The notes beneath the pieces are model-generated. The model was not told where the DNA came from. It saw nothing but the letters and a program-made list of their open reading frames with translations, and searched no databases. A stretch of DNA of 64,000 bases from Candidatus Melainabacteria bacterium (GTDB lineage Bacteria > Cyanobacteriota > Vampirovibrionia > Obscuribacterales > Obscuribacteraceae), in assembly GCA_963767815.1 (NCBI GenBank), contig CAVYFJ010000004.1, positions 501,800 to 565,799 of the forward strand, read 5' to 3'. This document shows, in pieces, positions 6,149-42,329 of the stretch; position 1 is the first letter of the stretch, and every line of letters starts with the position of its first letter. The position numbers and the translations under genes are program-made.

Positions 6149-6183
6149 AATTTTTGAATACGTCGTTTTATCGCGCGGAGGCG

Positions 6184-10049: not shown

Positions 10050-10054
10050 CCAAT

Positions 10055-10485: not shown

Positions 10486-11025
10486 ATGAGTAGCGAACAT
10501 GAGCAGCGTCGAATCGAGGCGACGTCGGTTGTTGGTGTGGGAAACCAATTGGATCTCGCGGCACTTTCGGACGATCAAGGGCCATCCGATCCAACGTTGC
10601 CTGCCGCAACTTCGCCATTGCACGGCGAAGACTCTCTCGACACTCCTGCTGAGATGTCGACTGATCTGTCCACCGCAAATCTGATTCGGGATCTCGACTG
10701 CGAGATTAGCCTAACAGTCCCAATCGGAGCCAATTCAGCCGGACTCGCACAGCGGATAACTAAGCCCAGATCTATCAGGTGCGACCGCGATGTCTACACA
10801 GATCCAGTGATCGAATTCCAAGTGGCCACAGGACTCATCGGCCTGCTACCTACTCCTTGCGCGGTGGTGGCATCGTCAGATCCTGCCTTGACACCTGAGT
10901 CCGGGCGCGGCTCTCCTGGACTGAACGCTGGAGAGATTGGCATTTTTGACGGCACCGGACGGCTTCTCAGCAAACGAAGCGCCCAAGGTTCATCTGAACG
11001 GCCAAGCAAGGCGGAGCAGCCGTAG
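10486..11025 (+). CDS. ORFan in GC-rich island A
   Basis: 179-aa ORF, SD GAGGAG 8 nt upstream. One 60-nt line spot-counts at 67% G+C. Followed by a hairpin terminator. No recognisable domain. Confidence 0.45.
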   Translation: MSSEHEQRRIEATSVVGVGNQLDLAALSDDQGPSDPTLPAATSPLHGEDSLDTPAEMSTDLSTANLIRDLDCEISLTVPIGANSAGLAQRITKPRSIRCDRDVYTDPVIEFQVATGLIGLLPTPCAVVASSDPALTPESGRGSPGLNAGEIGIFDGTGRLLSKRSAQGSSERPSKAEQP

Positions 11026-11066: not shown

Positions 11067-11105
11067 CCGAAGGTCTGCAGATGCGGACCTTCGGTCTTTG
11101 TTTCT
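11067..11105 (+). terminator. rho-independent terminator closing island A
   Basis: CCGAAGGTC-10 nt loop-GACCTTCGG followed by TCTTTGTTTCT. Confidence 0.65.
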
Positions 11106-11244
11106 ATTGTTATTTCTTCTTTTTCTTGTTTGTTTCGGGAATTATGCATTCTGTCAGGCCCCGACTATCGAAGGTCCGCTTGTTTTAAGATCTGAAATGG
11201 GATATACTTTGTATAAACATTTATTTTTTTACGGGGTATATTTA

Positions 11245-11481
11245 ATGGAATCTCGAGTCGCAAAATGGGGCAATAGTCTTGGCGTTCGTATTCCGCGCGG
11301 TATAGCTAAGGCCGTGGCTATTGACGAAAATACAACTGTAAATCTTGTGGTTGAAAATGATTACATTGTCATTTCTAAAAGTAAATCATATAAATTAGGT
11401 GAACTGCTCTCTGGCATTAAGCCTAAAAATCATCATAGAGAAATAAATACAGGCTCTCCCGTCGGAGAAGAAATTTGGTAA
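11245..11481 (+). CDS. mazE: MazE-type antitoxin (AbrB/SpoVT fold)
   Basis: MESRVAKWGNSLGVRIPRGIAKAV.. matches the MazE signature KWGNS..VRIP. Overlaps the toxin gene. Confidence 0.85.
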   Translation: MESRVAKWGNSLGVRIPRGIAKAVAIDENTTVNLVVENDYIVISKSKSYKLGELLSGIKPKNHHREINTGSPVGEEIW

Positions 11482-11828
11482 GGATAAAGTCGGTGGCAAA
11501 ACCATATACCCCTGAGCGCGGAGACATTGTCTGGCTAAATTTTGCTCCTCAATCTGGTCATGAACAAAGTGGACTCAGACCAGGATTGGTGATATCGCCA
11601 AAAAATTACAACGGATTAGCAGGTCTTGCTCTTCTTTGCCCTATTACCAGCAAGATAAAGGGTTATCCTTTTGAGGTTATTTTGGGTAACCAAGCAAAGA
11701 TTTCGGGAGCCGTTCTTTGCGATCAAGTTAAAAGTCTTGATTGGCGCTCACGCCGAGCAAGATTTATTATTAAAGCTAGCCCGGAAATTACTAATGAAGT
11801 ATTGGCGAAATTGAGAACACTTATTTGA
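11475..11828 (+). CDS. mazF: MazF/PemK-type endoribonuclease toxin
   Basis: PERGDIVWLNFAPQSGHEQSGLRPGLVISP..CPITSKIKGYPFEV, close to E. coli MazF motifs. TTG start overlaps the mazE stop. Confidence 0.85.
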   Translation: MVRIKSVAKPYTPERGDIVWLNFAPQSGHEQSGLRPGLVISPKNYNGLAGLALLCPITSKIKGYPFEVILGNQAKISGAVLCDQVKSLDWRSRRARFIIKASPEITNEVLAKLRTLI

Positions 11829-12278: not shown

Positions 12279-12902
12279 ATGTATATAGTTAGGCTTTTTA
12301 CGCTTCCTTCTGTTTTTTGGGGAAGCCCAATTCTCTTACTAACCCTTTTCCTTATCACCGACATATATATACAGCCTGCTTTTGCTGAGCTGACAACCAT
12401 AATATTGCCTTTGCATACAATTTTGCCACAATCCAGTTCACCACAATCTAATTTGTCCCCATACAAAATTGCGCCTGTCGATTCTCAGGGGAGTGCTTCC
12501 CATGACATTTGGGCAACGGCTCAATCCACGACAAACACTCCAACTGAAACAATTGCCGATTCTAATAGCTCACAGCTAGCAACGCCCCCCCTTAAGGAAA
12601 ACCAGCCAGCCAGTAATGCCCCAAAATTAAAAGGACGAGTTACTGTACCGGCAAATCCATATCGCGGCGTAAATAATTCATCCACCCCCTTTGCACCAGA
12701 AGGCACATTGCGTCGAGGCTTGCCGGCTCCGCTTGATCCGGTATTTCCCAGCACTGAGTATATTGGTATTGCCAGTCAATTACAAATTGGTATTCCAGAT
12801 CAAGATCCAATGTTTCCTCTAGAAAAAGCTATTTATAAAGCCTGTCCGTTTCTGGCTAAAAATAGAATCAAGTTTTATGGCTGGGTTAATCCTGGCGTCT
12901 GA
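12279..12902 (+). CDS. outer-membrane beta-barrel (BBP2-like porin), N-terminal fragment of a frameshifted gene
   Basis: Signal-like N-terminus, Pro/Thr-rich linker, ends ..RIKFYGWVNPGV where the next frame continues. Confidence 0.6.
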   Translation: MYIVRLFTLPSVFWGSPILLLTLFLITDIYIQPAFAELTTIILPLHTILPQSSSPQSNLSPYKIAPVDSQGSASHDIWATAQSTTNTPTETIADSNSSQLATPPLKENQPASNAPKLKGRVTVPANPYRGVNNSSTPFAPEGTLRRGLPAPLDPVFPSTEYIGIASQLQIGIPDQDPMFPLEKAIYKACPFLAKNRIKFYGWVNPGV

Positions 12903-13395
12903 TTACAGTACATCTCATCACGCCAATACACCTTTATCTTATTTTACTGTTCCCAATCATATAGAGTTAGATCAATTGGTTTTTCGTGCAGAACGGGTAC
13001 CGGATACAGTGCAAACTGAGCATATGGATTGGGGATTTCGCTCTACCTGGTTATATGGCATTGACTATCGTTGGACAACAGCTCAGGGATGGTATCCGGC
13101 TAGTGGTCAGCTATTGAAGCACAATCAACTTTATGGATTGGATCCAGTCGAGCTTTATACATGTCTTTACATACCCAAAGTTGCTGACGGTATGGTACTC
13201 AAATTTGGCCGTTATATTTCACCACCAGATATTGAAGCTCAATTGGCGCCAGATAATTATTTGTGGACGCATTCATTGATGTTTGACTATGATGCCTATA
13301 CCCAAACAGGTCTTCTAGCCAGTATCAAGCTTAATGAGTCATGGATGGTACAAGCTGGTATTAGTGCTGGCTGCAGATATTGCCCCTTGGGCTAA
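12877..13395 (+). CDS. beta-barrel porin, central fragment (frameshifted)
   Basis: DYSTSHHANTPLSY..DWGFRSTWLYGIDYRWT..KFGRYISPPDIEAQLAPDNYLWTHSL, alternating beta-strand pattern. Confidence 0.6.
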   Translation: MAGLILASDYSTSHHANTPLSYFTVPNHIELDQLVFRAERVPDTVQTEHMDWGFRSTWLYGIDYRWTTAQGWYPASGQLLKHNQLYGLDPVELYTCLYIPKVADGMVLKFGRYISPPDIEAQLAPDNYLWTHSLMFDYDAYTQTGLLASIKLNESWMVQAGISAGCRYCPLG

Positions 13396-17216: not shown

Positions 17217-17579
17217 GTGCTTGTCCTTCTTGTGACCAAGCCGCTTGGTTTATATGTGGCGCATATCGTAGAGGCAGATCAACCGGGACTGCCACTGCTT
17301 TTAAGAAAATTTGAAAATATGCTTTATAGGTTCTGCGGCGTAAATCCGCACCAAGAAATGTCTTGGGGCGAATATACGGCCGCCATGCTTTCGCTTTCTT
17401 TGGTTTCTTGTATTTTTTCTTATTCGATCATGCGCCTGCAGGGCTTTCTGCCCTTGAATCCCATGCATTTTGGCACTACGCAAACGCCGGCATTTTCTAC
17501 AGCGATGACCGCTGATTTGGCCTTTAACACTGCCATGTCATTTACGGCCAATACTGAATTGGCAAGCTTATGGCGGTGA
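17217..17579 (+). CDS. kdpA: KdpA, N-terminal fragment (frameshifted)
   Basis: ..[18 protein letters not shown] then the frame breaks. Shifting one base restores [18 protein letters not shown] further break is likely near 17215, since the ATG at 17179 is in another frame. Confidence 0.8.
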
Positions 17580-17586
17580 AAGCACA

Positions 17587-18969
17587 ATGTCTTATTTATC
17601 GCAAATGCTTGCACTCGCCTTTCACAACTGGCTATCAGCGGCAGTGGGTATCGCTTGTGCCATGGTGGTCATCCGTGGCTTTAGTCGCAGCAAGTCTGCG
17701 ACCATTGGTAATTTTTGGCGTGATTTAGTACGCATTACTTTTTATGTACTTTTTCCGATCACGCTGTTTTATGCAATTTTTTTAGTTTCTCAAGGGGTGA
17801 TCCAAACATTTGCTCCGTATTTAACTGTTGCCACCGTGGAAGGGGTGAAACAATTGATTGCTCTGGGCCCGGTGGCCTCTCAGGAGGCAATTAAAAATCT
17901 TGGCACTAATGGTGGTGGCTTCTTTAATGCCAACAGTGCTCATCCATTTGAAAATCCTACGCCACTCAGTAATTTAATTGAAATGCTTTCCATTTTTGCC
18001 ATCCCCGCTGCTTTGACTTACACTTTTGGTTGTCTGGTCAAAGACACGCGCCAGGGGTGGGCCTTGCTTCTGTGCATGTTCGTTTTATTTTTTGCTGGTA
18101 TTGCCGCATGTTATGCGGCCGAAGCCAGCGGCAATCCGCTCATTGCTGGACAGCAAGTTGAAACCTCTACCGGTGTTCTGGGCGATTTAGGCGGCAATAT
18201 GGAAGGCAAGGAAGTACGCTTTGGTCTGGCGGCTTCAACATTATTTGCTGTGGTGACAACTGATGCCAGTTGCGGGGCGGTTAATTGTATGCATGATTCA
18301 TTTACACCATTGGCGGGAATGATTCCACTGCTTAATATGCAATTAGGCGAGCTTATTTTTGGCGGTGTTGGAGCGGGGCTCAATGGCATAATTGTTTTTG
18401 CTGTGTTAACGGTTTTTATTGCCGGCTTAATGGTCGGGCGTACCCCAGAATATTTGGGTAAGAAAATAGAGCAAAAAGAAGTAAAAATGGCGATGCTTTT
18501 TGTCCTCATTGCCGCGTTTTCCATTTTAATTTTTACTGCCGTGGCTACCGCGATCAATTTACCAATTGGCAGTGCATTGAATCCGCCCGGTGCTCCCGTC
18601 AATAATACAAACAATGCCGGGGCGCATGGTTTTTCAGAAATACTTTATGCCTTTTCTTCCGGCACTGCCAATAACGGCTCTGCCTTTGCCGGACTGAATG
18701 CTAATACGCCTTTCTATAATATCTGCCTTGGTGTGGCGATGTTTATTGGCCGTTTCCTCATGCTTGTACCGGTATTGGCTCTAGCGGGATCACTTGCCCA
18801 AAAGAAATCTATTCCAGCCGGCAGTGGCACTTTCCCGACGCATGGCGGTTTATTTATTAGCCTGCTCATTGCCGTTATATTATTAGTCGGTGCTTTAACT
18901 TTCTTCCCGGCACTTTGTCTTGGACCAATTGTCGAACATTTACTCATGCAAAAACATGTACTCTTTTAA
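17587..18969 (+). CDS. kdpA: KdpA, C-terminal 460 aa (frameshifted gene)
   Basis: [67 protein letters not shown]. Confidence 0.9.
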
Positions 18970-18994
18970 AATGACGAAACACATGGAAGAAATC

Positions 18995-19135
18995 GTAGGG
19001 GCACATTGCGTGTGCCCGCTTGAAACGACGTATCCGAATAGAATCGTAGGGGCGAAGCTTCAACGGCATCACTCAGATGCCGTTGTGCCCGCTGTCGCGG
19101 AGAATCGACACCCAAGTGACGAAATATAGGGGCGT
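18995..19135. repeat. REP cluster in the kdpA-kdpB spacer
   Basis: GTAGGGGCACATTGCGTGTGCCCG and GTAGGGGCGAAGCTTC.. variants. Confidence 0.75.
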
Positions 19136-19141
19136 GCTTAT

Positions 19142-19888
19142 ATGGCATCTAATTTGAACATTATTCCCAATAAACGCAAAATAGCTCTCTGGCAGCCGCA
19201 ATTGATTAAGCGGGCGATTTTTGATGCTCTAATCAAGCTTAATCCGGTAACACTGGCCAAAAACCCGGTCATGTTCGTTGTTGAAGTGGGTAGTGTTTTA
19301 ACAAGCATTTTATTTGTGCGCGATTTGCTGGAGCACATACCGATCTCTGATTTGATCTATCAGGGGCAAATTAGCCTCTGGTTATGGTTTACTGTTTTGT
19401 TTGCTAATTTTGCCGAGGCTATGGCCGAAGGCCGGGGAAAAGCGCAAGCCGATAGTTTAAGGCGCAGTCGTCAGGAAACTGCTGCTCGCCTGGAGACAGG
19501 CAACAATAAACACGAGATGATTCCGGCGACTAAACTTAAAAAAGGCAATATTGTACTTGTGCAAGCGGGAGAACTGATTCCTGGCGATGGAGAAGTGATC
19601 GAAGGCGTGGCCAGCGTAAACGAAAGCGCCATCACTGGCGAATCAGCGCCGGTAATTAGGGAAAGTGGCGGCGATCGCAGTGCCGTTACCGGCGGTACCA
19701 CAGTATTATCCGATTGGCTGCGCATAAAAATTACCGCTGAAGCCGGTGAGACTTTTATAGATCATATGATTGCTCTAGTGGAAGGAGCGCAAAGGCAAAA
19801 AACCCCCAATGAAATCGCGCTGAATATCTTACTTGCAGGGTTGACGATTATTTTTCTATTGGCGGTAGTCACGCTTGTTTCCCTATAG
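19142..19888 (+). CDS. kdpB: KdpB P-type ATPase, fragment 1
   Basis: [11 protein letters not shown].., [31 protein letters not shown]. Confidence 0.85.
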
Positions 19889-20828
19889 TGTTTATGCCGT
19901 TCAAGCTGCCAATACTGGTAAGCCGCCTGATATTTATTCTCTGGTTTCTCTTTTGGTCTGCCTCATTCCTACCACTATTGGTGGCTTGCTTTCCGCAATT
20001 GGTATAGCTGGTATGGATAGAGTATTTCAGGACAATATTTTAGCCATGAGCGGTAAGGCTGTAGAAGCGGCTGGTGACGTGGATACTATACTGTTAGACA
20101 AGACCGGGACAATTACCTTGGGCAATCGACAGGCGGTTGAATTTATTCCGGCAGCTAATGTGCCCACTCTTGAATTTACCGATGCTGCTCAATTATCATC
20201 TCTTGCTGATGAAACACCGGAAGGTCGATCAATTGTTGCTCTAGCTAAACAACAAGGTTTTCGTGAGCGCGAACTCGCCAGCGTCAATGCCCACTTTATT
20301 TCGTTTAGTGCTCAAACGAGAATGAGCGGTGTTGATATTGATGGCCGGCAGATTCGCAAAGGGGCGGCGGAGGCAATCGCTAAATTTCTTAAGGCGAACG
20401 GGCTAGACTTGCCCGTGGACGTTGAACAGGAAGTACGGCGCATAGCTCAATCCGGTGGCACACCGTTGGTGGTGGCGGATAATAAAAGCGGCGCTCTGGG
20501 AGTGATTTATCTAAAAGACGTAGTCAAAGGGGGCATGAAAGAGAGGTTTCAGCAATTGCGAGCGATGGGTATTCGCACAGTAATGATCACCGGCGATAAT
20601 CCGCTTACTGCTGCTGCCATTGCCGGCGAAGCCGGTGTCGATGACTTTCTTGCCGAAGCTACGCCGGAAGCTAAAATGCAACTGATTCGCAAAGAACAAA
20701 TTGGCGGTCAGGCTTATTGCCATGACTGGCGACGGCACAAACGATGCTCCAGCTCTTGCGGCTGCCGATGTTGGCTTGGCGATGAATACCGGCACGCAAG
20801 CAGCCAAAGAAGCCGGCAATATGATTGA
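19875..20828 (+). CDS. kdpB: KdpB, fragment 2 (phosphorylation/nucleotide domain)
   Basis: [33 protein letters not shown]. The true frame ends near 20705. Confidence 0.85.
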
Positions 20829-21036
20829 TCTTGATTCTAATCCGACAAAATTGATTGAAGTGGTGCAAATTGGCAAGCAACTGTTGATGACCCGCGGTGC
20901 TTTAACCACATTTTCTATTGCCAATGATGTGGCCAAATATTTTGCTATTTTACCCGCCATGCTAGGCAGCCTTTATGCCATAAAGACAAATGCTAGCGTC
21001 GCCAATAGTCTAACTGCGTCAAGTGGCGAATGCTGA
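20701..21036 (+). CDS. kdpB: KdpB, fragment 3
   Basis: [48 protein letters not shown]. Confidence 0.85.
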
Positions 21037-21307
21037 TTTCACCGCTATGCATGGACCGCTCTGGCTTTTAAATATTATGTCTTTGCATTCACCACAATCG
21101 GCCATTTTGGCAGCGGTAATTTTTAACGCTCTTATTATCGTCGTCTTGATACCACTTGCTCTTAGAGGTGTCTCTTATCGCCCGATGAGTGCCCAGGCCC
21201 TTTTGCGCCGCAATTTGCTCATTTATGGGCTAGGCGGACTGATTATTCCCTTTCCGGGCATCCTTCTAATCGATCGTCTCATTGTTGCTTTACACCTGGT
21301 AAATTGA
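21023..21307 (+). CDS. kdpB: KdpB, fragment 4 (C-terminal TM helices)
   Basis: [39 protein letters not shown]. Confidence 0.8.
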
Positions 21308-21351
21308 TGTTGCGCTATGTTGATGTTGAAACGCGGTACGTACCCGAAATC

Positions 21352-21376
21352 GTAGGGGCGGGGCTTGCTCCGCCCG
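21352..21376. repeat. single REP in the kdpB-kdpC spacer
   Basis: GTAGGGGCGGGGCTTGCTCCGCCCG. Confidence 0.8.
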
Positions 21377-21412
21377 CTGTCCTGGAAATATGATAATGCT
21401 AGAAGGAACGAC

Positions 21413-21622
21413 ATGACGATTTTAAATAATAATGGACTGACAAAACATTTATTACCCGCCATGCGTACGACCCTTGTTATGGCCGTCTTAACCGGTTTAC
21501 TTTTTCCGGCGCTTGTCTATGCACTTGCTCACTTGCTTTTCCCCGACCAGGCTGAAGGATCTTTTGTGCGCAATCAAAATAGATCTGATTATTGGCTCTC
21601 GTTTAATTGGGCAAAACTTTAG
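21413..21622 (+). CDS. kdpC: KdpC, N-terminal fragment (frameshift near 21575)
   Basis: [50 protein letters not shown]. Confidence 0.75.
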
Positions 21623-22079
21623 CCGTCCTCAGTATTTTCATCCTCGCCCATCAGCTGCCGGCTCCGGTTATGGCGCTGGAGCATCTGCTGGTACCAATTT
21701 GGGACCAACATCAAGAAAGCTTATTCAGGGGCAAGAAGACGATCCGTCAACAAAGCTGGCGGATGAATCATTTGCTGGTATTAAACAACTAGCGGAAAAA
21801 TATCGTCATGAAAACAATTTATCGATAGGAATTTTAATTCCTGTCGATGCTGTCACTCGTTCAGGCTCAGGTCTTGATCCGCACATTTCTCGACAAAATG
21901 CTTTGCTGCAGGCGCCCCGGGTTGCTCGCATCAGAGGTATAACAGTGCAGTCGATAATCCCATTAATAGATGCGCACACTGCGCGCCGGCAGCTTGGATT
22001 TTTAGGTGAACCAGGTGTAAATGTTTTGGAATTAAATCTGGCTTTAGATCAAAATGCCAAAGCGGCTGGGTCGCGATGA
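21513..22079 (+). CDS. kdpC: KdpC, C-terminal fragment
   Basis: [38 protein letters not shown]. Only the part after about 21590 is the true frame. Confidence 0.75.
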
Positions 22080-22127
22080 CAATATTTAGATGTCGTTGCA
22101 CTCCAACAAAGAAGAGCAGGGGTAGAG

Positions 22128-22526
22128 ATGAACGATAACCATGATACAAGACAAAAGGAACGGCGGCGAGCAGGAGCGAAGACGCGCCGTCCGGACCCGG
22201 AAAAGCTTCTAGCGAAGATAAAGGCGAAAGAGACTGAATCCGCTAAGGGTAAACTAAAAATTTTTCTTGGCTTTGCTGCCGGTGTTGGTAAAACTTATGC
22301 CATGCTTGAATCCGCGCATAAACTTTTGAAAGCCGGCATGGATGTTGTAGCTGGCTGCGTCGTCACGCACGGGCGGGCCGAAACTGAAGCCTTATTATCT
22401 GGTTTGGAAGTGATACCGCCCAAGGTGCTGGAGTACAAAGGCGCAAAGTTGGAGGAGTTTGATCTGGATGCGGCACTTAGCCAGGCGTCCTTCTTGTGTG
22501 CTTATAGACGAATTGGCTCATACTAA
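22128..22526 (+). CDS. kdpD: KdpD sensor, N-terminal fragment (frameshift near 22480)
   Basis: GKLKIFLGFAAGVGKTYAMLESAHKL (KdpD N-terminal P-loop). Confidence 0.8.
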   Translation: MNDNHDTRQKERRRAGAKTRRPDPEKLLAKIKAKETESAKGKLKIFLGFAAGVGKTYAMLESAHKLLKAGMDVVAGCVVTHGRAETEALLSGLEVIPPKVLEYKGAKLEEFDLDAALSQASFLCAYRRIGSY

Positions 22527-24168
22527 TGTTACCGGTTCACGTCATGAAAAGCGCTACCAGGATGTGGAAGAACTGCTCGACGCTGGTATTAACGTCTATG
22601 CCACTTTAAATGTACAACACATTGAAAGTTGCAACGATATTGTTGCTCAAATTATCAATGTTGTTGTGCGCGAAACTGTTCCTGACTCTATTGTTGAAAG
22701 GGCACATGAAATCGAACTTGTAGACATCACGCCGGATGAATTAATTGAGCGCCTGCATGAAGGCAAAGTTTATGTGCCGGATCAAAGTCAAAAAGCATTG
22801 GAGAATTTTTTTAAAAAGGGCAATCTCATTGCCTTGCGTGAGCTTTCACTGCGAGTGGCAGCAGAGAAAGTTGATGTGGACATGCAGCGCTACCGTGAAG
22901 ACCAGGAAATAGAGGCGGTCTGGCCGGTTTCAGAAAAAATTGCCGTCTGTATTAGCGCCAACCCGCTTTCAGCACGGCTTGTGCGAGCCGCCAAGCGCAT
23001 GGCTACTAGCTTACACGCCGAATGGCTTGTGGTTTATGTGGAGACCCCTCGACACTTGAGGCTAACTGCGCGCGAAAAAGACAGATTATATAAGACAATC
23101 AATCTAGCTGAGCGACTAGGTGCGCAATCGGTCACTCTAAGCGGCACAGCAATTGCTGAGGAGTTGATTGCCCTTGCGCAGGCGCGCAACGTGACAAAAA
23201 TAGTGATTGGTAAGGCAACAGGCGGATGGCTGAAGCGAATTGAAGGCAGAATATTTGGTTCGCTTGTTGATCGGGTGATTCGTCTGAGCGGCACAATTGA
23301 CGTTTATGTGATTACCGGTTATCCAATACAACCGGAGCCAACCCAGCGGTATAACTTGCCGGTCAGCCGCTTGAAGATTGAACAATATCTCTATGTTATT
23401 GCAATTGTCGCCCTGGCAACGATTGTTGATCATTTAGTTTTCCACAAATTAAAGCAAGTCAATCTGGTGATGATTTACTTGCTGGCAATTATTTTTTCTG
23501 CCACAAGATATGGTCCTGGCCCATCGGCGCTTGCCTCAATTTTAAGCGTTTTATGTTTTGATTTCTTTTTTGTTCCGCCGTATAACTCATTTGCAATCTC
23601 TGATATCCAGTACTTTCTCACTTTGCTGGTAATGCTCACAGTTGCGCTCACTTTGAGTAGTATCACTGTGCGCAGTAGGCAACAAGCTCAATTGGCCAAG
23701 CACCGTGAACGCCAAACGGCGGCTCTTTATGCTATGACCAGAGAACAAGTAACAGCTGCAAATGTGGAATCAATTCTTGCCGCTTCTTTGAAGCATTTAA
23801 ATGAAGTATTTGACAGCAAAGCTGCTGTCTTACTAGCCAACGAAAATGACTCTTTGAACGTGGACTTTCCATCAGTAAATTCTTATAAAATAGATTCACA
23901 CGAAATGGGGGTTGCCCAATGGGTATTTACCAACAAGCAAATGGCTGGAGCGGGAACATCAACCCTGCCGGGTGCAAAAGCTATCTACTTACCGTTGATT
24001 ACGCCGCGGGGCATCATTGGTGTAATCGGCTTATTACCGGAGCAAAGAGAAAGATTATTGAATCCAGAAGAAATGCATTTTCTTGAGACATTCGTCTATC
24101 AAATTGCCCTCGCTGTGGAGCGTGCCTCAGGAACAGAAATCAAGTCGGATCAACGACCGGACTCGTAG
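22459..24168 (+). CDS. kdpD: KdpD sensor (KdpD-N, Usp, TM, GAF-like) lacking the kinase transmitter domain
   Basis: LIDELAHTN.., Usp-like segment, 4 TM helices, GAF-like end. Stops just before where the H-box should begin. The TAG stop is the TAG of a REP GTAG motif. Confidence 0.8.
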   Translation: MIWMRHLARRPSCVLIDELAHTNVTGSRHEKRYQDVEELLDAGINVYATLNVQHIESCNDIVAQIINVVVRETVPDSIVERAHEIELVDITPDELIERLHEGKVYVPDQSQKALENFFKKGNLIALRELSLRVAAEKVDVDMQRYREDQEIEAVWPVSEKIAVCISANPLSARLVRAAKRMATSLHAEWLVVYVETPRHLRLTAREKDRLYKTINLAERLGAQSVTLSGTAIAEELIALAQARNVTKIVIGKATGGWLKRIEGRIFGSLVDRVIRLSGTIDVYVITGYPIQPEPTQRYNLPVSRLKIEQYLYVIAIVALATIVDHLVFHKLKQVNLVMIYLLAIIFSATRYGPGPSALASILSVLCFDFFFVPPYNSFAISDIQYFLTLLVMLTVALTLSSITVRSRQQAQLAKHRERQTAALYAMTREQVTAANVESILAASLKHLNEVFDSKAAVLLANENDSLNVDFPSVNSYKIDSHEMGVAQWVFTNKQMAGAGTSTLPGAKAIYLPLITPRGIIGVIGLLPEQRERLLNPEEMHFLETFVYQIALAVERASGTEIKSDQRPDS

Positions 24169-24304
24169 GGGCGGGCACAAGTCCGCCCGTGTACTTTCAA
24201 CCGACAGCGCCGGTTAAAGCAGGCGGAGCATTTATGTTTTTGGATTCAGTGGCACCCGCTCGGTATAACTCATATACCTCACGGCCACTGAGCCCCGCCC
24301 CTAC
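24165..24304. repeat. REP cluster: short REP 24165-24190 plus a long-variant REP (reverse orientation) 24219-24304
   Basis: GTAGGGGCGGGCACAAGTCCGCCCG. Reverse complement of the long variant has central hairpin GGTATAT..TTATACC. Confidence 0.85.
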
Positions 24305-24368
24305 GATCTTTTTGATGTCTTCTATCTATCTACGCAACCAACTGAATACTTACCTTCCTCTTAACAGA

Positions 24369-24430
24369 TAGCGCTAGCCGCGCTAACTATGTCTGGAATT
24401 TAATTTCAGAAATACAATTATATTTTGCTT
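24369..24430 (+). promoter_or_regulatory. conserved island leader, copy 2
   Basis: TAGCGCTAGCCGCGCTA at 24369-24385. GCGCTA-N15-TAATTT (24401-24406). Points into island B. Confidence 0.5.
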
Positions 24431-24674
24431 ATATGGGACGGTTATCTGATTGGGCCATTGGTTTGGCTAAATCGATCCTCTTGAATTTGCTATCGACAAA
24501 TTGCCAGAATAAAAACAGTATTGATTCCATTCTCTTACGGACTACACACGCAGCAGACAACCCATTAGCTCAGCCAAGCTTCAAGATTCTTTCACCTCGT
24601 TGGTGACTGAAGGAAGCTTCGTTTTCGCTCGTCGTCGATCTGATCCATTCAACCGCTATCACGAGGAGTCCCCG

Positions 24675-25583
24675 ATGTCCATGAAACCTACCCACCCGAT
24701 GCACAGAGTTGACGTCTTCGAACTTCTGATCAATGAGGTCATTTGCTTCTGGAGAAGACAGAAAGCCGGCGAATTCAAGAGACCTGAACAAGCCCTCAGA
24801 ATTGCCCTCTCCAAGCCATTGGTGTTGGCTGGTTTTCCGGCGTTACGCCGAGTGCGAATAGAAACCCCTGACGATTATATGACCGTGGCCATCGAAGAGG
24901 GCAGCGGAGCGATCAAGTTTTATTACGATCTGACAAGTGCAGACGTCGGCGACTTTCTCGAGAGTGCAGCAACGGCGGTATTTTATTGCGCTGAGGACAC
25001 CGATGCAATTTTGTTGTCGGTCCGCTCGGTTCTGGGCAGTTCTCTGCGTAAGCCTACTCGCCTGCAGTTAGCGCGGATACGTGCAGAATATGATGCACAA
25101 AGTTTTGATGACTTGATTCTGGAGTTTTTACGGCGCGTACTGGCTTGCCCTCGCCGCAAAAACTTCACTGAGGCGGATGCGCACAGAGCTCGTCGAGTCA
25201 AAGCGTCTCGATTGAATAGTCACGAGGTGGAACGCCCATTGCGTTACCTGCACACGATTCAAGAATGGATAGCCCATCTGAAAGGAGATAAGAGTTTCGC
25301 TTGGGCGGCGACTATACTGGGGCATTTACGAGAAGCCTTTATTACCCGCTGCAATGTCGAGGCCTCCACCTGCGACAAAATTCTCGTATTAGATCCCGGC
25401 GCAAGAGTTGTCGCCCTGCTGAAGTTGCTCAATGCGCGAGAAAAGGAGCTACTAGCAAAGGATCCTGTTGCACGGTATAACAAGCAGCTCTGCGTGGCGG
25501 CAGCAGATAACTTCGCTATCAGAGTGTTAGCGTGGGCGGCAGTCGGAAACGATACTCGCAAACGCAGCGAATCTACTGGCTAA
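24675..25583 (+). CDS. ORFan in GC-rich island B
   Basis: ORF 24600..25583. Preferred start is ATG 24675 with SD GAGGAG 6 nt upstream. Helical-looking protein, no family recognised. Confidence 0.55.
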   Translation: MSMKPTHPMHRVDVFELLINEVICFWRRQKAGEFKRPEQALRIALSKPLVLAGFPALRRVRIETPDDYMTVAIEEGSGAIKFYYDLTSADVGDFLESAATAVFYCAEDTDAILLSVRSVLGSSLRKPTRLQLARIRAEYDAQSFDDLILEFLRRVLACPRRKNFTEADAHRARRVKASRLNSHEVERPLRYLHTIQEWIAHLKGDKSFAWAATILGHLREAFITRCNVEASTCDKILVLDPGARVVALLKLLNAREKELLAKDPVARYNKQLCVAAADNFAIRVLAWAAVGNDTRKRSESTG

Positions 25584-25948
25584 GCGAACATTGGTCTTCG
25601 TTTCTTTCACAGAAAGGAAAGGATTAGAAGCAAAGCACACGCTTCGGGGCGTTTGGAGCAGGACGCTCTAGCGCCCATTACTTCTTTTCACTTTTATGTT
25701 TTTTGTAAGAACAAAAATGCCAAAGAAAAATCATTTATATTGAATTTAGCTGGAAATACTATAAACAATAGTAGATATTACTCGAAAATAAAAGCCGACA
25801 AAGTTTGATCGACTGCTTGAGGTCTGATATTTAGAAGAATAAAAAATAACTAAAAAACGGACGATCAAACCCAACATCATGTTGAGCTCGATCGCCGCCA
25901 CCGCCAATTTTCAGATGCTGTCCTTATGGTTGGCGGATGCGTGCGCTT

Positions 25949-26842
25949 TCAACCGACCGCATCTTGCTTCTGCCGCGAGCGCATGAGGATGCGCAAGCCA
26001 GCGCGAAATCTGGACTGAAGACCCGCAACTGCCGCGCCTGGTAGAATTTTTGCTTCCTTTGCCGCGAACTCGAACAAGTTACGCAGTTCTCGCAGCAAAT
26101 TAACTTCTTGTCTGTCGTAGTCGCTAAACGGCGTGACGTAAACACCTCTTTCTTCAAGAGGCTTAGCGCCGAATCCGGTCACCCAGGTTCGAGTAGCGTC
26201 CAGCTCGTCAAATAAGGGCAATGCCTGTTCCTTCTGGCGTTGAATTAATGCCGTTAGATGAGGCAGCGCCCTATCCGTGATCCTTGTGTTGTTCAATTTG
26301 AGGGATCTCAGCCTGAGCGAATCACTCAAATAGGACACGCTGATATCATCGAACCAGGTGCCCGATGCATCCAATATGCTTAGGCTTGGCAATCCCTTTA
26401 AATGTTGGAAACCCTTACTAGTGACCCGGGTATCGGACACATTAAGGGTGTGGAGCCTATTCAAGCCTGCTAGATAGCTCATGCCCGAATCGTTGACATA
26501 CGTATCTTGTATATCGAGAACCTCTAGCCGAGCTAACTTTCGCATACAAGGCATGATCTCATTGCCAATGCGCAGGCTTTCAAGCTTGAGCACCCGCAAA
26601 TTGGGCATTGCCTTGAGAGCCGTGATGAGATTAGCTTGGGCTACGCTTGTTTGCCAAAGGTTGAGTTCCTCAACGGCTTCCGGATGCCTGATCGCTGATA
26701 AGCAGCGCCCAGTTATCTGTGCGGCGATAAGAATCAACCTGCGTACTCCAGCCAAATCGTACAGTTGCACGGCAAGCTGATCATCGGTTATGTCTGCGGA
26801 GTGCACCTGGACGGTGCCGTCAGCTGAAACTGACAGTTTCAT
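25949..26842 (-). CDS. leucine-rich repeat protein (RI-like ~24-aa LRRs) in island C
   Basis: Repeats such as LRVLKLESLRIGNEIMPCMRKLARLEVLDIQDTYVNDSGMSYLAGLNRLHTLNVSDTRVTSKGFQHLKGL. Start ATG 26842 has SD AAGGAG. Confidence 0.75.
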   Translation of the reverse strand: MKLSVSADGTVQVHSADITDDQLAVQLYDLAGVRRLILIAAQITGRCLSAIRHPEAVEELNLWQTSVAQANLITALKAMPNLRVLKLESLRIGNEIMPCMRKLARLEVLDIQDTYVNDSGMSYLAGLNRLHTLNVSDTRVTSKGFQHLKGLPSLSILDASGTWFDDISVSYLSDSLRLRSLKLNNTRITDRALPHLTALIQRQKEQALPLFDELDATRTWVTGFGAKPLEERGVYVTPFSDYDRQEVNLLRELRNLFEFAAKEAKILPGAAVAGLQSRFRAGLRILMRSRQKQDAVG

Positions 26843-27134
26843 CTCTGTCTCCTTTTCAATCGTGCCTAGCTGCGCCCTTGAAACAAACACCCCACATCTC
26901 ATAAATATGGGAGCGGGAGCAGCTGAAGTGGTTGATTGATCCGTTGTTTGAAGAATTCTAGTAAATAAGGAAGTGTGTCTTTATTTACACATTTTGATTG
27001 AGGCTAAAGCAAGCCCCTATATCTGGTGCGCACGCTGAAGATAATCACTCGATATCCCCACTTGCAAATTGGGTTAAACAGTCTATTCGTCGTCTGTTTG
27101 ATTTGATGACAAGCTCTATTGAAGGATTTCTTTG

Positions 27135-27206
27135 CTCGCAAAGGCAAGAATTAATCAAAAATGGCAATATTAATTGACTGCGATAAGGTTAGCGCAGCGG
27201 CGCTAA
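27135..27206 (-). promoter_or_regulatory. conserved island leader, copy 3 (reverse orientation, faces the LRR gene)
   Basis: TTAGCGCAGCGGCGCTAA at 27189-27206. On the minus strand, GCTGCGCTAAC-N..-TAATAT with a 17-nt spacer (box at 27172-27167). Aligns almost base for base with copies 5 and 6. Confidence 0.55.
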
Positions 27207-27230
27207 CTTGACTGCCTCCATGAATAATAC

Positions 27231-27255
27231 ACGGGCGCGCATGCCATGCCCCTAC
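27231..27255. repeat. single REP (reverse orientation)
   Basis: ACGGGCGCGCATGCCATGCCCCTAC. Its CTA (27252-27254) is the stop codon of the minus-strand kinase-like gene. Confidence 0.75.
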
Positions 27256-27659
27256 GGAAAGAAGAAGTTAAAACCGTCGTCCTTGCCTGGTTTGACAATC
27301 ACCAGCCGTCCTTCATGCGCTTTTGGTTTGCCGCGTGAATTAAGCTCATTGAATAAATTGACTAATACGCTTTCATCTACTTGCCGGCTGCGTTCTTTAT
27401 TTCGTTGCAAACATATTTCCAGCGGTACATCAAGAATCCACAATTGAATGTCTTGATAGCCGAATTTATTTGCGCGCTCTAAAATTTGGCGGCGATGATC
27501 GCTTCTCACATTTGTATTGTCGATCACTACATCTTTGCTTGCTTGAAATAGTGCTTCCCAGACGCTGAAAAAATATTTGGAAAACTTCCTTCGGATTGCC
27601 TTGCTCCGCCTCATTGCCGTAAAGCTCCAGGCGAATATCATCAGCGCATAGACGCTCAA
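27252..27659 (-). CDS. AAA_33/polynucleotide-kinase-like ATPase, C-terminal fragment (frameshifted)
   Basis: VVIDNTNVRSDHRRQILERANKFGYQDIQLWILDVPLEICLQRNKER. Confidence 0.65.
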   Translation of the reverse strand: MSVYALMIFAWSFTAMRRSKAIRRKFSKYFFSVWEALFQASKDVVIDNTNVRSDHRRQILERANKFGYQDIQLWILDVPLEICLQRNKERSRQVDESVLVNLFNELNSRGKPKAHEGRLVIVKPGKDDGFNFFFP

Positions 27660-27738
27660 AGCCTTTGGTGGTCAATCTCTTGGCCAGCGTCGTTTTGCCT
27701 GATCCAGGAATACCCACGAGCATTATCAATCTTTGCAT
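27466..27738 (-). CDS. AAA_33-like ATPase, N-terminal P-loop fragment (frameshifted)
   Basis: MQRLIMLVGIPGSGKTTLAKRL (Walker A). Confidence 0.65.
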   Translation of the reverse strand: MQRLIMLVGIPGSGKTTLAKRLTTKGFERLCADDIRLELYGNEAEQGNPKEVFQIFFQRLGSTISSKQRCSDRQYKCEKRSSPPNFRARK

Positions 27739-31992: not shown

Positions 31993-32050
31993 TTGCGCTA
32001 GCTAGCGCAAGTGTAAAGTGCGTTTTAATAAAGCAAAAAATTGATTATAT
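31993..32050 (+). promoter_or_regulatory. conserved island leader, copy 4
   Basis: Perfect 18-nt palindrome TTGCGCTAGCTAGCGCAA at 31993-32010. GCGCAA-N15-TAATAA (32026-32031). Confidence 0.55.
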
Positions 32051-32430
32051 ATATCTAGTCTTACCGTTTGTCGCACAGTCCAGCGTCGCTGAAAATTATC
32101 AGCCAGTATTAAAAATGCGGCTAGTTGCTTCTACAAGACTGATTTTTTTCTTCCCATTTATTTGGCTTGCAGTTGACATTCTCGCTTGACTTCGCATGGG
32201 CAGAACAGGTTAAGCTAAGGCATCGTGTTTTTTGAGAGTCGAAATTCTTCCTAGTCCTGATTGAATGTCTATTTGTGCTGCCAAACTGAGTGCCTGCGGG
32301 CGCAAGTTGTGTGCTAGTCGCAAATAGGAATTTATTTCGGGACGACGAGGATGACGACGAGTTGTTTGCTCCGGCGAGATCGAGTCGTTCGGTTTGCGCG
32401 GAGCGTGGTGACTTTACGAAGGAGATTGAG

Positions 32431-32793
32431 ATGGGGATCATTCGACGCCGGTTTCAGTTTGGTTCATTAGGGGTCGAAGAGACGCTGGGTGCGGTCAACA
32501 GCCGCTTTCACAATCATGGATGCAGTGGACCGGAGACGGTCTTGCTCATACAGAGTCCAAGTTCGCTGGAGCTGTCAATCAGGGAGCGAGGATCCTCGAC
32601 GCATGTGTCCGGAACGGCAAGATCTCGCGAGGGCGGCTTAGCTGTATTAAACGGCGACCTTGCTGCCTGTCCGGGCTGGCTGCAGGATTATGTTGCCAGG
32701 GCCAGGTACCACCCCGTACACGGCCGGGCGAAAGCTGAACTACCAGGTTCGGCGAACAGTGTATTCAGGACAGGTTCAGGACCGTCAGCTTGA
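32431..32793 (+). CDS. island D protein 1, N-terminal part (probably continues by frameshift into 32660..33010)
   Basis: SD AAGGAG 6 nt before ATG 32431. MGIIRRRFQFGSLGVEETL resembles the N-terminus of island D protein 4. Confidence 0.4.
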   Translation: MGIIRRRFQFGSLGVEETLGAVNSRFHNHGCSGPETVLLIQSPSSLELSIRERGSSTHVSGTARSREGGLAVLNGDLAACPGWLQDYVARARYHPVHGRAKAELPGSANSVFRTGSGPSA

Positions 32794-33010
32794 TTGTGCC
32801 GTGGTGGAACTCTTGAGTCAGCAAGGCGACTTTCAAGCGGCCTTTCTGGAGGTTGACGGCGCGTCCAGCTTCGCCGATTCGCCGGATGACATCGCCGTTT
32901 TTCAGCAGCGGCTTGTGGATTTGCTTGACGAAATTTTCCGTGGTGCGCTCAGGGAAGAGACGCGCACGGAAGAACAGATCGCCTGGCAGTCCATGTATAA
33001 CGCAGTCTAG
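32660..33010 (+). CDS. island D protein 1, C-terminal part
   Basis: The frame shows G-rich first codon positions. C-terminal motif AAFLEVDGASSFADSPDDIAVFQQRLVDLLDEIF is shared with D2-D4. Confidence 0.4.
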   Translation: MLPVRAGCRIMLPGPGTTPYTAGRKLNYQVRRTVYSGQVQDRQLDCAVVELLSQQGDFQAAFLEVDGASSFADSPDDIAVFQQRLVDLLDEIFRGALREETRTEEQIAWQSMYNAV

Positions 33011-33073
33011 CCCCGACCCGGAGGTGTTGTTCGGCGAGCTTGTTTCTGACAGTGCGCGGCTCCGTGCCATGAT

Positions 33074-33262
33074 ATGGGGCATGTCCGGATCCACAAATCA
33101 TACCCCATCGACTTTGTGATCAGCGTCTGCCCCGGTGAGGTCGAGCCACATGCGTGGCTCGACGCCGGGGCATATACAAGTTTCCGTTTGTTCGCTTTCG
33201 AGGAGAATGCACGTGCACGATCCGAAAACTGTCCGGCGTACCTGGGTGATCAATTCCAATGA
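33074..33262 (+). CDS. island D protein 2, N-terminal fragment (likely linked through 33135..33413 to 33394..33834 by frameshifts)
   Basis: ATG-initiated ORF 64 nt after D1. Three overlapping plus-strand frames tile 33074-33834. Confidence 0.3.
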   Translation: MGHVRIHKSYPIDFVISVCPGEVEPHAWLDAGAYTSFRLFAFEENARARSENCPAYLGDQFQ

Positions 33263-33393
33263 GGAGGCTTCCAGAATTCGAGATCGGCTCGAGCACCCTG
33301 GTGCTCTTGAGAGGCATTACCGGTATTGTGGTGCATACACTGAACGTCGCCTGCTGCGCCGGGAACCTGGACCCCTGGGACCCATGATGCAAA

Positions 33394-33834
33394 TTGTTGT
33401 TGTCGATCGTTGACGACGATCTCGAGGATGGAAGCAGTCGGACAATTTCTTGGACGCAACCTACTTCGGTCGGTGCGCCGACAAGTTACTCGTATGACTT
33501 GAGCGATCTTGTCCCGCCGCTATGGGAGTTAATCCGGACGGCAATCAACCCCACGATTGAGTACTCGCTGAATCGTGAGTATTTCCAGGGGCATGCTGAT
33601 AATCTCCGGTCGGCGAATTGTTCTATTGTTCGTTTGACCGCGCCGGGTGCGCAAGAGTCGTGGTTCCTCGACTTCGAGGTCAGCATGATGTGCGACGATG
33701 GCGACGATCGTGTACTTCAGGTTGAGCATGCCCTCGACGTGCTGGTATGTGCGTTGATGGGGCAGGCTCGTCCGCCAGAAGTGACGGTCGACTTTGATCG
33801 CATCATCCTTGAATCCCAGCCGCAACCTGCCTGA
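33394..33834 (+). CDS. island D protein 2, C-terminal part
   Basis: 146-aa ORF containing SWFLDFEVSMMCDDGDDRVLQVEHALDVLVCAL. Its stop is 3 nt before the next ATG. Confidence 0.45.
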   Translation: MLLSIVDDDLEDGSSRTISWTQPTSVGAPTSYSYDLSDLVPPLWELIRTAINPTIEYSLNREYFQGHADNLRSANCSIVRLTAPGAQESWFLDFEVSMMCDDGDDRVLQVEHALDVLVCALMGQARPPEVTVDFDRIILESQPQPA

Positions 33835-33837
33835 AGA

Positions 33838-34614
33838 ATGCCGGACTGTGCGACCAGCAATCGTCGCACAGTGAAAAACGTCCAGCCAATCGAATCCTAC
33901 GCAGTAGCATGGCGCGGTGGATCAAGTCATACGACTTACACCGCGCCATGGCATTTCCCGAGATCGGAGAACCCACAAATGCTATTTCGCCAATCGTGCC
34001 GCTTCCGCATCAGTGATGTGTCCTGCGCCCTTGCGGCTGAGACACTGCAAGGCAATGATCCAAACGGACGTCCTTACCGGCGCCAGGGTACCGAGCAGTT
34101 TCAGTGCTTGCTGTGCCCTGAGCGAATTGGTTCGGCCGAGTGCCTCCTGCTCACGAATGGTCATGACCTGTGGGGCACAACTCGGTCCACCCTGAGCGGA
34201 ATTCTCAGTCGGTGCAGCCGCGAACCCACGGGAAGCACTGGCCCAATGGAGTTCAGGACCGAATTGGGCTCGGACCAGACCCACGACATACTGTCGACTC
34301 TCCTCACCGATACTACGGGCAGACAACTTCTGTCTTACCGACTCACACGTGAAATTTACTTCGGTACCGCCGAATGCTGGGATACCGAAATCGCTCTTAC
34401 CTCCTTGACCGACGGCAGCGAAACCATTGGTGATTATATCGAAATTACCATATGGGGACGGCTGGAGGACAGTAACGAAGAGTGCGAAAAAGCAGGCCGG
34501 TTGATTCCCGGCTTGCGATCGATCATAGCTCAGGGCGTGCGGCAAGACGAGCTGCGTGACTGGCCGCAGATTGCCTACCAGTACCAGCTCGCCAGGTGGG
34601 CGGCAATCACCTGA
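33838..34614 (+). CDS. island D protein 3
   Basis: 258-aa ORF starting 3 nt after the D2 stop. The C-terminal half looks protein-like (GDYIEITIWGRLEDSNEECEKAGRLIPGLRSII). The N-terminal half is less convincing. Confidence 0.4.
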   Translation: MPDCATSNRRTVKNVQPIESYAVAWRGGSSHTTYTAPWHFPRSENPQMLFRQSCRFRISDVSCALAAETLQGNDPNGRPYRRQGTEQFQCLLCPERIGSAECLLLTNGHDLWGTTRSTLSGILSRCSREPTGSTGPMEFRTELGSDQTHDILSTLLTDTTGRQLLSYRLTREIYFGTAECWDTEIALTSLTDGSETIGDYIEITIWGRLEDSNEECEKAGRLIPGLRSIIAQGVRQDELRDWPQIAYQYQLARWAAIT

Positions 34615-34784
34615 ACTGGCCGCAGTCACGCTGATTCCTCACAATGCAGGCTGCTTCTGCAGGAGATGAAAGGTTCTCAAAAGTGATCGCGTCGGAGAGT
34701 ATGCCGAAGACGACAGAGCTGCGTTCATGCGAGTCGCGCGTGCGGCTTGCACCGCAGCATAACCATGTTTCTGGAGGAAATGCG

Positions 34785-35456
34785 ATGATCACAAAGCGCT
34801 TCGCGCTGACAAGTTTCGAGCTTGCTGGAGTCCGACATCAACTAATTGGAAGATCAGATCTATATGCTCATGACACTGGCCAACGTGCTGAACAGGTCCT
34901 TTACCCAGGACCGTTCGGCGAGATCCAGTGGGTCATATGCCAGAAAAATCAATCAGGAATTGCGGAATTGACCTGTCTTCGATACGGTGCGGGAAACCGT
35001 CTGCTGGAAGAGCACCACCAACCGACATCCAGTGCCGGCAACGACGAGCGGATTCTCTATCGCGTGCTTGAGGGCTTGGGGGCGGTGCATGCCATTTCCC
35101 ACTACGTAAATAGGCGCATCTGGACTTTCACTGCGCCTAAGGCACAAGACCAGTTCTGCACCCTCCTCGATGGTCGAGTGTCCGAACTCACGCTTGTCGG
35201 TATCGCGGACCGAAATCAGGAAGAAGTCGCTGGCTATCTCGATGTGTCCATAGAGCGGAGACTAACGGACTTTCCGCAGAAAATGGCGGCACTCTCGCTT
35301 CTGCCTGGCCAGTTGTATCTTTATCTGCTGAACAGTTCTGGCAAAGACGAGCCGCGCAGCCATGAGCAGATCGTCTTTCAGTGCCTGGCAAGCGAAGAAG
35401 TACTCCACGGCGGGACTGTGGGTAAACCGAGGACTCGCATGATCGAATCGGACTGA
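34785..35456 (+). CDS. island D protein 4
   Basis: ATG 34785 with SD GGAGGA. MITKRFALTSFELAGVRHQL.. and AGYLDVSIERRLTDFPQKMAALSLLPGQLYLYL. Confidence 0.5.
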   Translation: MITKRFALTSFELAGVRHQLIGRSDLYAHDTGQRAEQVLYPGPFGEIQWVICQKNQSGIAELTCLRYGAGNRLLEEHHQPTSSAGNDERILYRVLEGLGAVHAISHYVNRRIWTFTAPKAQDQFCTLLDGRVSELTLVGIADRNQEEVAGYLDVSIERRLTDFPQKMAALSLLPGQLYLYLLNSSGKDEPRSHEQIVFQCLASEEVLHGGTVGKPRTRMIESD

Positions 35457-42317: not shown

Positions 42318-42329
42318 TATATATTTAAA

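Follow-up and report, generated by a model that had tools for sequence, protein, structure and literature searches.

What is the 2.8-kb block of deviating composition that lies between a truncated kdpD gene and the pyrB–pyrC cluster in this 64,000-nt stretch of contig CAVYFJ010000004.1 (hereafter the window), from a Candidatus Melainabacteria bacterium? A sequence-only reading of the locus had taken the block (24370–27207) to be a single element, bracketed by inverted copies of a leader, whose arrival may have removed kdpE and, with it, the 3′ part of kdpD. The analysis described here finds two independent members of a dispersed family of units, each of which opens with a short conserved element, here called the head, that is followed by an AT-rich leader and by GC-rich genes. 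The head is best explained, with a probability that we put at roughly 0.55, as a shared promoter or operator that would define a regulon of accessory islands across the Melainabacteria, a group of uncultured non-photosynthetic relatives of cyanobacteria in which, to our knowledge, nothing is known of gene regulation.

The block and its immediate flanks hold the following features (GC3, GC content at third codon positions; ORF, open reading frame; LRR, leucine-rich repeat; REP, repetitive extragenic palindromic sequence):

22128–24168, plus strand: kdpD pseudogene, frameshifted near 22484 and cut before the phospho-accepting histidine.
24162–24307, no strand: REPIN-like doublet of GTAGGGGCGGGC REPs, placed where kdpD is truncated and found among both the direct and the inverted repeat families, with a hairpin at 24169–24188.
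24370–24406, plus strand: head 2, with the GC box AGCGCTAGCCGCGCTAAC at 24370–24387, GCGCTA at 24380–24385, a 15-nt spacer and the −10-like TAATTT at 24401–24406.
24407–24674, plus strand: leader of the 302-aa gene, AT-rich (GC ~0.40) and unconserved, a putative 5′ untranslated region (UTR) of ~260 nt that ends in the Shine–Dalgarno sequence GAGGAG.
24675–25583, plus strand: ORF of 302 aa behind the Shine–Dalgarno sequence GAGGAG, GC 0.518, GC3 0.535.
25647–25705, plus strand: terminator-like hairpin (25647–25676) and T-rich tail of the 302-aa gene, fold −20 kcal/mol, z −2.25.
25860–25896, minus strand: intrinsic terminator of the LRR gene, a stem of 17–20 bp and then TTTTTT, fold −27.4 kcal/mol, z −6.4.
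25949–26842, minus strand: LRR ORF of 297 aa, GC 0.512, GC3 0.56, with AAGGAGA upstream.
26843–27166, minus strand: leader of the LRR gene, AT-rich and unconserved, a putative 5′ UTR of ~320 nt.
27167–27207, minus strand: head 3, with the GC box GTTAGCGCCGCTGCGCTAAC from 27207 to 27188, GCGCTA from 27195 to 27190, a 17-nt spacer and TAATAT from 27172 to 27167.
27227–27252, no strand: single REP, from the repeat search, directly after the AAA_33 kinase gene.
27252–27738, minus strand: AAA_33 P-loop kinase gene with one frameshift and Pfam matches on both halves, the last gene of pyrB–pyrC–hypothetical gene–AAA_33.

The two convergent units that had been described from the sequence are present, at 24370–25705 on the plus strand and at 27207–25860 on the minus strand, each made up of an outward-lying head, a GC-shifted ORF and a terminator of its own, next to core genes (kdpD, pyrC and pyrB) with a GC of 0.435–0.457 and a GC3 of 0.37–0.43. 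One terminator hairpin per unit falls inside the AT-rich gap between both stop codons; that of the 302-aa gene was spotted by eye, having been missed by a simple terminator scan. The 230-nt spacer of the earlier description corresponds to the AT-rich core of this gap (GC ~0.38), the full distance from stop to stop being 365 nt. The REPs said to lie outside both leaders were recovered at slightly corrected coordinates, as the doublet and the single copy given above, and the GTAGGGGCGGGC family has many copies in the window.

Where three copies of the leader had been counted, a profile search together with variants gives six heads in the window, beginning at 10050, 24370, 27207 (minus strand), 31994, 45946 and 49401. 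Four of these are strong copies by profile search (E of 1e-13 to 1e-17; nhmmer range overall, 1e-10 to 1e-17), and the head pattern has four matches in the window against 0.11 expected by shuffling. The heads outside the block are:

10050–10116, plus strand: head 1, a variant of the form TGCGCTAGCTAGCGCAAG...TTTTAATGT, which leads to a GC-rich ORF of 179 aa (10486–11025).
31994–32035, plus strand: head 6, a variant of the form TGCGCTAGCTAGCGCAAG...TTTTAAT like head 1, which leads to a GC-rich island (32290–35456).
45946–45990, plus strand: head 4, which leads to GC-rich ORFs (46275–47228).
49401–49445, plus strand: head 5, which leads to a GC-rich ORF of 368 aa (49783–50889) with a long stretch rich in proline and serine.

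Downstream of all six heads, on the strand of the head, come an AT-rich leader (GC 0.34–0.42, 260–440 nt) and then GC-rich ORFs (0.50–0.575), with a cargo GC3 of 0.53–0.64 against 0.32–0.47 in core genes; the chance that six random positions would match the smallest observed step in GC from leader to body is ~8e-9, and for the GC of the body alone it is ~5e-5. The 3.2-kb island behind head 6 consists of four ORFs without Pfam matches (GC 0.54–0.57, GC3 0.56–0.63). A hairpin stands at the 3′ end of every window unit, with a T-run after most, and three of the six heads have REPs just beyond them. The six units share no conserved 3′ end, and neither a target duplication nor a second site was found. 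Since the other members of the family occur singly, with a terminator and not a second head at their far end, the proposed single element bracketed by inverted leaders gives way to two independent units that happen to converge. Identity with a transposon, a miniature inverted-repeat transposable element or an insertion sequence (IS) of the IS200/IS605 kind was rejected on the same absence of a conserved 3′ end, on an unconserved hairpin and because the inverted heads belong to two units; annotation of the 2.8-kb block should avoid the term transposon.

Two observations concern the surroundings and the cargo of single heads. A MazE/MazF (PemK) toxin–antitoxin pair occupies 11098–11828, some 70 nt past the terminator-like hairpin of the ORF led by head 1. 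The cargo of head 4 contains two ORFs in the same frame (131 aa and 135 aa) that are split by in-frame stops, as well as a third, overlapping ORF in which GC3 is below the GC of second codon positions (GC2), and it is either a pair of small genes or a single, disrupted one.

The anatomy of the head was worked out on 24 copies, comprising the window heads, six loci from Melainabacteria metagenome-assembled genomes (MAGs) and about 14 metagenome contigs. Anchored on GCYGCGCTA, 23–24 copies give the consensus CGCTAGCYGCGCTAAC-tt..aag-N5-ATTTAAT, after which come phased AAT boxes. The −10-like hexamer begins with TAAT in all 24 copies and has T at position 6 in 16 of them. GCGCTA was scored 17 nt upstream of TAATnT in 18 of the 24 and mis-scored as 12 nt in two through a duplicated TTAAT, and the remaining spacers are of 18 nt (two copies), 16 nt (one) and 15 nt (one, head 2). 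Both a −10 of the sigma-70 type (TAnnnT) and a spacer of 17 ± 1 bp are thereby found in the heads. A TTGACA-like −35 is absent and GCGCTA stands in its place, from which we infer an alternative sigma factor or an activator; on balance, the head would be a promoter of the sigma-70 family with its −35 region replaced by the GC box. Transcription would then start near 24413 on the plus strand and near 27160 on the minus strand, to give 5′ UTRs of ~260 and ~320 nt. The box GCGCTAGCYGCGCTAAC is not known to fit any promoter consensus. A sigma-54 promoter (TGGCAC-N5-TTGCW) was rejected, no leader having a match on the gene strand at two or fewer mismatches. The head also contains a palindrome, the left arm of which is often missing; fold energies of the DNA range between −2.8 and −9 kcal/mol, some copies having only a weak hairpin. 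The head is therefore taken to be a recognition site in double-stranded DNA and not a hairpin, and a site of the attC-like hairpin type was rejected on the same grounds.

Heads recur in other genomes. A strict scan for the head pattern in one genome per species returned eight loci, six of them in Candidatus Melainabacteria MAGs, and a scan of metagenomes returned 16 contigs; the one match in a scan of viral contigs is probably due to chance. At these other loci the head precedes an AT-rich leader of 250–450 nt and ORFs with a GC of 0.54–0.60, in surroundings where the GC of the locus is 0.41–0.52. At least 30 head copies stand before unrelated ORFs, and the cargo ORFs are mutually unrelated except for one pair, the units L005 and L008, which are homologous from the head onward and not upstream of it. 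At one locus in a Melainabacteria MAG (L006, 4813–6282) a head leads to an ORF of 489 aa with a normal GC of 0.44; by eye its product resembles a transposase, and an IS may have landed in this unit.

Relatives for the comparison of gene order were picked through pyrC. The product of this gene in the window, a dihydroorotase, is 68–73% identical to proteins of Obscuribacterales and other 'Melainabacteria' MAGs, all window proteins tested are singletons in clustering at 90% identity, and an exact look-up of a window protein returned no record; the source, an Obscuribacterales-like member of the Melainabacteria/Vampirovibrionia, is therefore a lineage without a close sequenced relative. The order pyrB–pyrC–hypothetical gene–AAA_33 is conserved in loci L009, L010 and L012, and what lies beyond AAA_33 varies: the LRR unit in the window, a weak head with three unrelated ORFans in L012, and a methyltransferase gene without any head in L009 and L010. 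Similarly, the gene for an M20 peptidase overlaps pyrB both in the window and in L011 and lies 8.2 kb from it in L012, where two small genes on the reverse strand and a GC-rich island led by a head come in between; this island has a pair of genes that resemble nicotinate phosphoribosyltransferase (NAPRTase) and phosphoribosyl pyrophosphate (PRPP) synthetase. Different islands at the same core junctions imply that head-led islands are variable accessory DNA between fixed core genes, and they are swapped there without recognisable mobile-element machinery. Because the segment inserted in L012 begins ~750 nt ahead of the head, the head is not obviously the breakpoint. The NAPRTase-like and PRPP-synthetase-like genes are adjacent in the island of L012 (1576–8000; also L009, 1–8346) and have weak matches to the phage families phrog_448 and phrog_619; the pair resembles the NAD-salvage gene pairs of phages.

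The gene behind head 2 bears on this recurrence as well, given that it had been regarded as an ORFan. Its 302-aa product has no Pfam, PADLOC or PHROG match, nor was any match found in a word-seeded search of 5.8e9 proteins, but a full HMMER scan of 1.84e9 representatives recovered two remote homologues of the same length, P0177 and P0178. The first of these is 27% identical to the window protein, with the common motifs LTGLPTLR, FLRRVxACPR and ERPLR. Both map to a 3.7-Mb contig from the closest relative, where each falls within a GC-rich island of several genes that is led by a head and consists of ORFs without Pfam matches, one with its head at 1387–1454 followed by eight genes (L033) and the other with its head at 3853–3924 followed by four (L035). 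The supposed ORFan, which belongs to a tiny lineage-specific protein family, is therefore a recurrent component of the island family. A single-sequence AlphaFold2 (AF2) model of the 302-aa protein has a mean predicted local distance difference test (pLDDT) score of 48.5 and is unusable. An origin of the cargo in defence systems or phages was rejected, with no PADLOC match for ten cassette proteins, no PHROG match for the three window cassette proteins tested and only the probable chance match among viral contigs.

These observations may be brought together in a model in which each unit runs from a head of 40–70 bp through a unit-specific, AT-rich leader of 260–440 nt to one or several GC-rich, fast-evolving, lineage-specific genes and an intrinsic terminator. 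An alternative sigma factor would recognise the box in the head, or else an activator or repressor bound over the −35 region would do so, and the common head would subject every unit to one shared regulatory input, so that together they would make up a regulon of accessory genes. The units themselves would be gained and lost as accessory islands between conserved core genes. Several points weigh against this model. A shared promoter alone leaves the constant GC-rich cargo and the length of the leaders unexplained, and a scan with the canonical sigma-70 consensus found no site in 24100–27400, although this is expected where GCGCTA replaces the −35. Head 2, with its 15-nt spacer, may be a weak promoter. 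The comparative data come entirely from MAGs and metagenome contigs at ~70% amino-acid identity or less, and two unusual arrangements, a pair of tandem heads 53 nt apart (L018, 1788–1911) and a head with a terminator hairpin within ~30 nt and no ORF, which is an 'empty' unit or a small RNA (L027, 3079–3180), fit a recombination site as well.

It is this last alternative that survives best, though it appears doubtful: the head would be a recombination or attachment site, or the end of a new type of mobile gene cassette fed from a GC-rich pool shared in the Melainabacteria, units would move together with their leader and terminator, and promoter activity would be secondary. Cargo GC stays roughly constant at 0.50–0.60 across hosts with a locus GC of 0.41–0.52, islands are present, absent or replaced at the same core-gene junctions, the homology of L005 and L008 starts at the head, several copies have partial hairpin potential, and both the tandem and the 'empty' heads would be readily accounted for. 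Against this stands the composition of the window, in which no recombinase or transposase was found among the ORFs scanned except for an IS200-like REP-associated tyrosine transposase (RAYT) at 5575–6087 that is tied to REPs, and in which the units have neither a common 3′ boundary nor a target duplication or second site. The insert in L012 does not begin at its head, the left arm of the palindrome is unconserved, and the fixed 17-bp spacing to TAATnT, the constant orientation and the constant distance to the ORF are what a promoter predicts. The cassette reading overlaps with the promoter model in the form of a 'mobile promoter plus cargo', and both may coexist.

More improbable still is that the 2.8-kb block was inserted as a unit and thereby deleted the 3′ part of kdpD and kdpE. 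The lesion itself is as the sequence-only reading had reported it: kdpD retains the Pfam domains KdpD, Usp, DUF4118 and GAF, lacks HisKA and HATPase_c and hence its transmitter, and matches NCBIfam PRK10490 only up to position 651 of 895, while tblastn with Escherichia coli KdpD covers residues 7–664 only. No remnant of the KdpD C-terminus or of KdpE was found in 24169–27250, so that kdpD is indeed not followed by kdpE; a response-regulator/kinase pair at 41076–43001 is a system separate from kdp. The stop of kdpD at a position that corresponds to residue 664 in E. coli, the absence of any kinase remnant after it, the inverted heads at both ends of the block and the intactness of the cassette ORFs between frameshifted neighbours on either side (kdp and AAA_33) are all consistent with an insertion. 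The truncation, however, coincides with the REPIN at 24162 and not with the head at 24370: the stop codon of the kdpD frame is the TAG that a REP (GTAGGGG) supplies at 24166–24168, ~200 nt before the head, and no target duplication is visible. Moreover, other members of the family have a single head and a terminator, which makes the inverted arrangement two convergent units, and a similar pair is found in L018.

The state of the operon also argues against an insertion as the cause. Over the ~7 kb of kdpABCD (17217–24168) there are ~7 frame changes in addition to the truncation, with one in kdpA, three in kdpB (which is thereby split into four frames), one in kdpC and one in kdpD, and further REPs occupy the gaps between kdpA and kdpB (18986–19055) and between kdpB and kdpC (21326–21383). 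Sequencing error is an unlikely source of these frameshifts, given that there are seven in 7 kb, that long neighbouring genes are intact and that the sites are not long homopolymers; single frameshifts, such as those of AAA_33 and recD2, may be of that origin. With so many frame changes, kdpABCD amounts to a cluster of decayed pseudogenes, which should be annotated as dead, and the truncation of kdpD is thus one lesion among many. Among the relatives examined, at ~70% amino-acid identity, there is none in which kdp adjoins pyrBC–AAA_33. The junction between kdpD and AAA_33 lies in a rearranged, variable region, and a REP-associated deletion or rearrangement in an operon that was dead, or that died later, fits the truncation at least as well as arrival of the block.

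The leaders, finally, had been described as copies of one another. The shared 5′ element among them is real, and it accounts for the first ~40–70 nt only (60–70 nt in an alignment of four copies), the remaining 260–320 nt being unalignable. It is very improbable that each leader is a copy of one cis-regulatory RNA that senses a single signal (be it a riboswitch, an attenuator or an sRNA-like element, that is, one resembling a small RNA), since for all their length of 260–440 nt and a conserved 5′ element in the same orientation before every cargo ORF, conservation ends ~50–70 nt in, mostly upstream of the putative start site, no k-mers are enriched in the remainder across 29 copies, the predicted folds are no better than those of shuffled sequences (z of +0.87 for the 302-aa gene and −0.63 for the LRR gene), and Rfam has no match either at the gathering threshold or at E ≤ 1.

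The LRR protein behind head 3 is the cargo product for which a fold can be proposed. Its resemblance to ribonuclease inhibitor (RI), noted from the sequence, was borne out by Pfam matches (LRR_4 at 1.7e-8, plus LRR_8 and LRR_6) and by an AF2 model built on an alignment of 30 sequences (pLDDT 89.9), for which the best PDB matches in Foldseek are ribonuclease inhibitor (7.9e-10), NLRP3-LRR, internalins (InlA) and Legionella LegL1. About eight repeats of the 24-residue type LxxLxLxxTxITDxGL cover residues ~30–235, and the model has a solenoid of 8–9 units followed by a C-terminal helical hairpin. On this modelling the protein can confidently be described as a predicted solenoid of the RI/LegL1 kind, and it is probably a protein-binding module. 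It is like the RI-type LRR proteins, LegL1 and the internalins among them, in repeat type and predicted fold, and differs from them in an identity of only 15–26%, in the lack of a signal peptide or known translocation signal and in its helical hairpin of unassigned role, and a role as an effector would be putative. As to the suggested check for secretion signals and homologues, inspection by eye shows no signal peptide of the Sec type, and the homologues found are all distant LRR proteins at 23–37% identity. The window yielded no secretion system, only a weak TrbI-like match at 54011–55417. LRR homologues were rejected as a recurrent head-led cargo, the nearest ones examined being in contigs with a GC of ~0.59–0.60 that are apparently not from Melainabacteria, have no heads and differ in gene context from the Melainabacteria loci.

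No description of the head motif or of such units was found in the literature searched. The nearest concept is that of putative mobile promoters, which are similar non-coding sequences (at least ~50 nt) upstream of non-homologous genes, identified with a cut-off of 80% identity in a window from −150 to −50 (Matus-Garcia, Nijveen and van Passel 2012; PMC3575422). Heads have in common with them that homologous sequence precedes non-homologous genes within and between genomes, and that neither is an IS or a known RNA family. The similar sequence before non-homologous genes is present here, with an identity over 50 nt that is often below 80%. Heads differ in that their conserved part is shorter (~40–70 nt) and lies 260–440 nt before the start codon, outside the window from −150 to −50, and in their compositional signature, their terminator-bounded units and a conservation across MAGs at ~70% identity of core proteins.

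Other systems share single properties with the heads. Integron cassettes are alike in that many unrelated genes, mostly orphans and deviating in composition, each go with a short conserved site that is partly a palindrome (attC), but the head is 5′ of the gene and promoter-like, with a long leader in between, and the units are dispersed in both orientations instead of forming tandem arrays, with terminators of their own. An integron cassette or attC site was rejected, with no integrase among the scanned ORFs, no RYYYAAC/GTTRRRY pair and 3′ ends that are plain terminators. REPs and REPINs with their RAYT are, like heads, short dispersed intergenic repeats of the same genome; the REPs are unlike heads in being a different sequence family with strong hairpins that is not oriented towards genes. 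The window itself contains an IS200-like Y1 transposase ORF (5575–6087; Pfam Y1_Tnp at 4.9e-6) between REP clusters at 5179–5312 and 6067–6150, which is likely a RAYT with its REPs and the source of the REP and REPIN copies in the window.

Promoters of alternative sigma factors or of dedicated activators that define a regulon are also known, as in the phase-specific regulon of Bdellovibrio and in the Legionella effector genes controlled by PmrA and CpxR. The heads would be analogous to these in placing a short box at a fixed spacing before many unrelated and often lineage-specific genes, LRR proteins included, and the structural match of the LRR protein to LegL1 fits this picture. The head units are set apart by their GC-shifted cargo and unusually long leaders, by the rejection of sigma-54 and by the missing sigma-70 −35.

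As a more speculative extension, the head-led units could conceivably form an undescribed class of self-contained cassettes (promoter box, leader, GC-rich cargo and terminator) that constitute a fast-turnover gene pool of the Melainabacteria and are jointly switched on by a single sigma factor or regulator dedicated to them, for instance in a predatory or host-associated phase with LRR or disordered effectors. If this were true, and if a density of ~1 head per 10 kb held, there would be hundreds of cassettes per genome. Between genomes with core enzymes only ~70% identical, the 15-nt box is retained; it marks ~1 locus per 10 kb and stands ahead of GC-shifted genes without Pfam matches. The head may thus serve as a handle on 'dark matter' genes, offering a countable candidate regulon, predictions of start sites and a bait for the regulator, and it flags orphan genes, LRR and disordered proteins among them, that are likely to act together.

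Two further stretches of the window deserve mention. A recD2/yrrC-type helicase gene (6603–8619) is frameshifted into two overlapping ORFs, and its 5′ part contains a 69-nt direct repeat (8417–8485 and 8528–8596, 86% identical). Between ~13400 and ~16900 there are 3.5 kb with only short, broken ORFs on the plus strand and no Rfam match, tandem repeat or convincing Pfam match, which may be a heavily decayed large gene, and just before this ORF-poor stretch lies a truncated BBP2 porin ORF (12877–13395).

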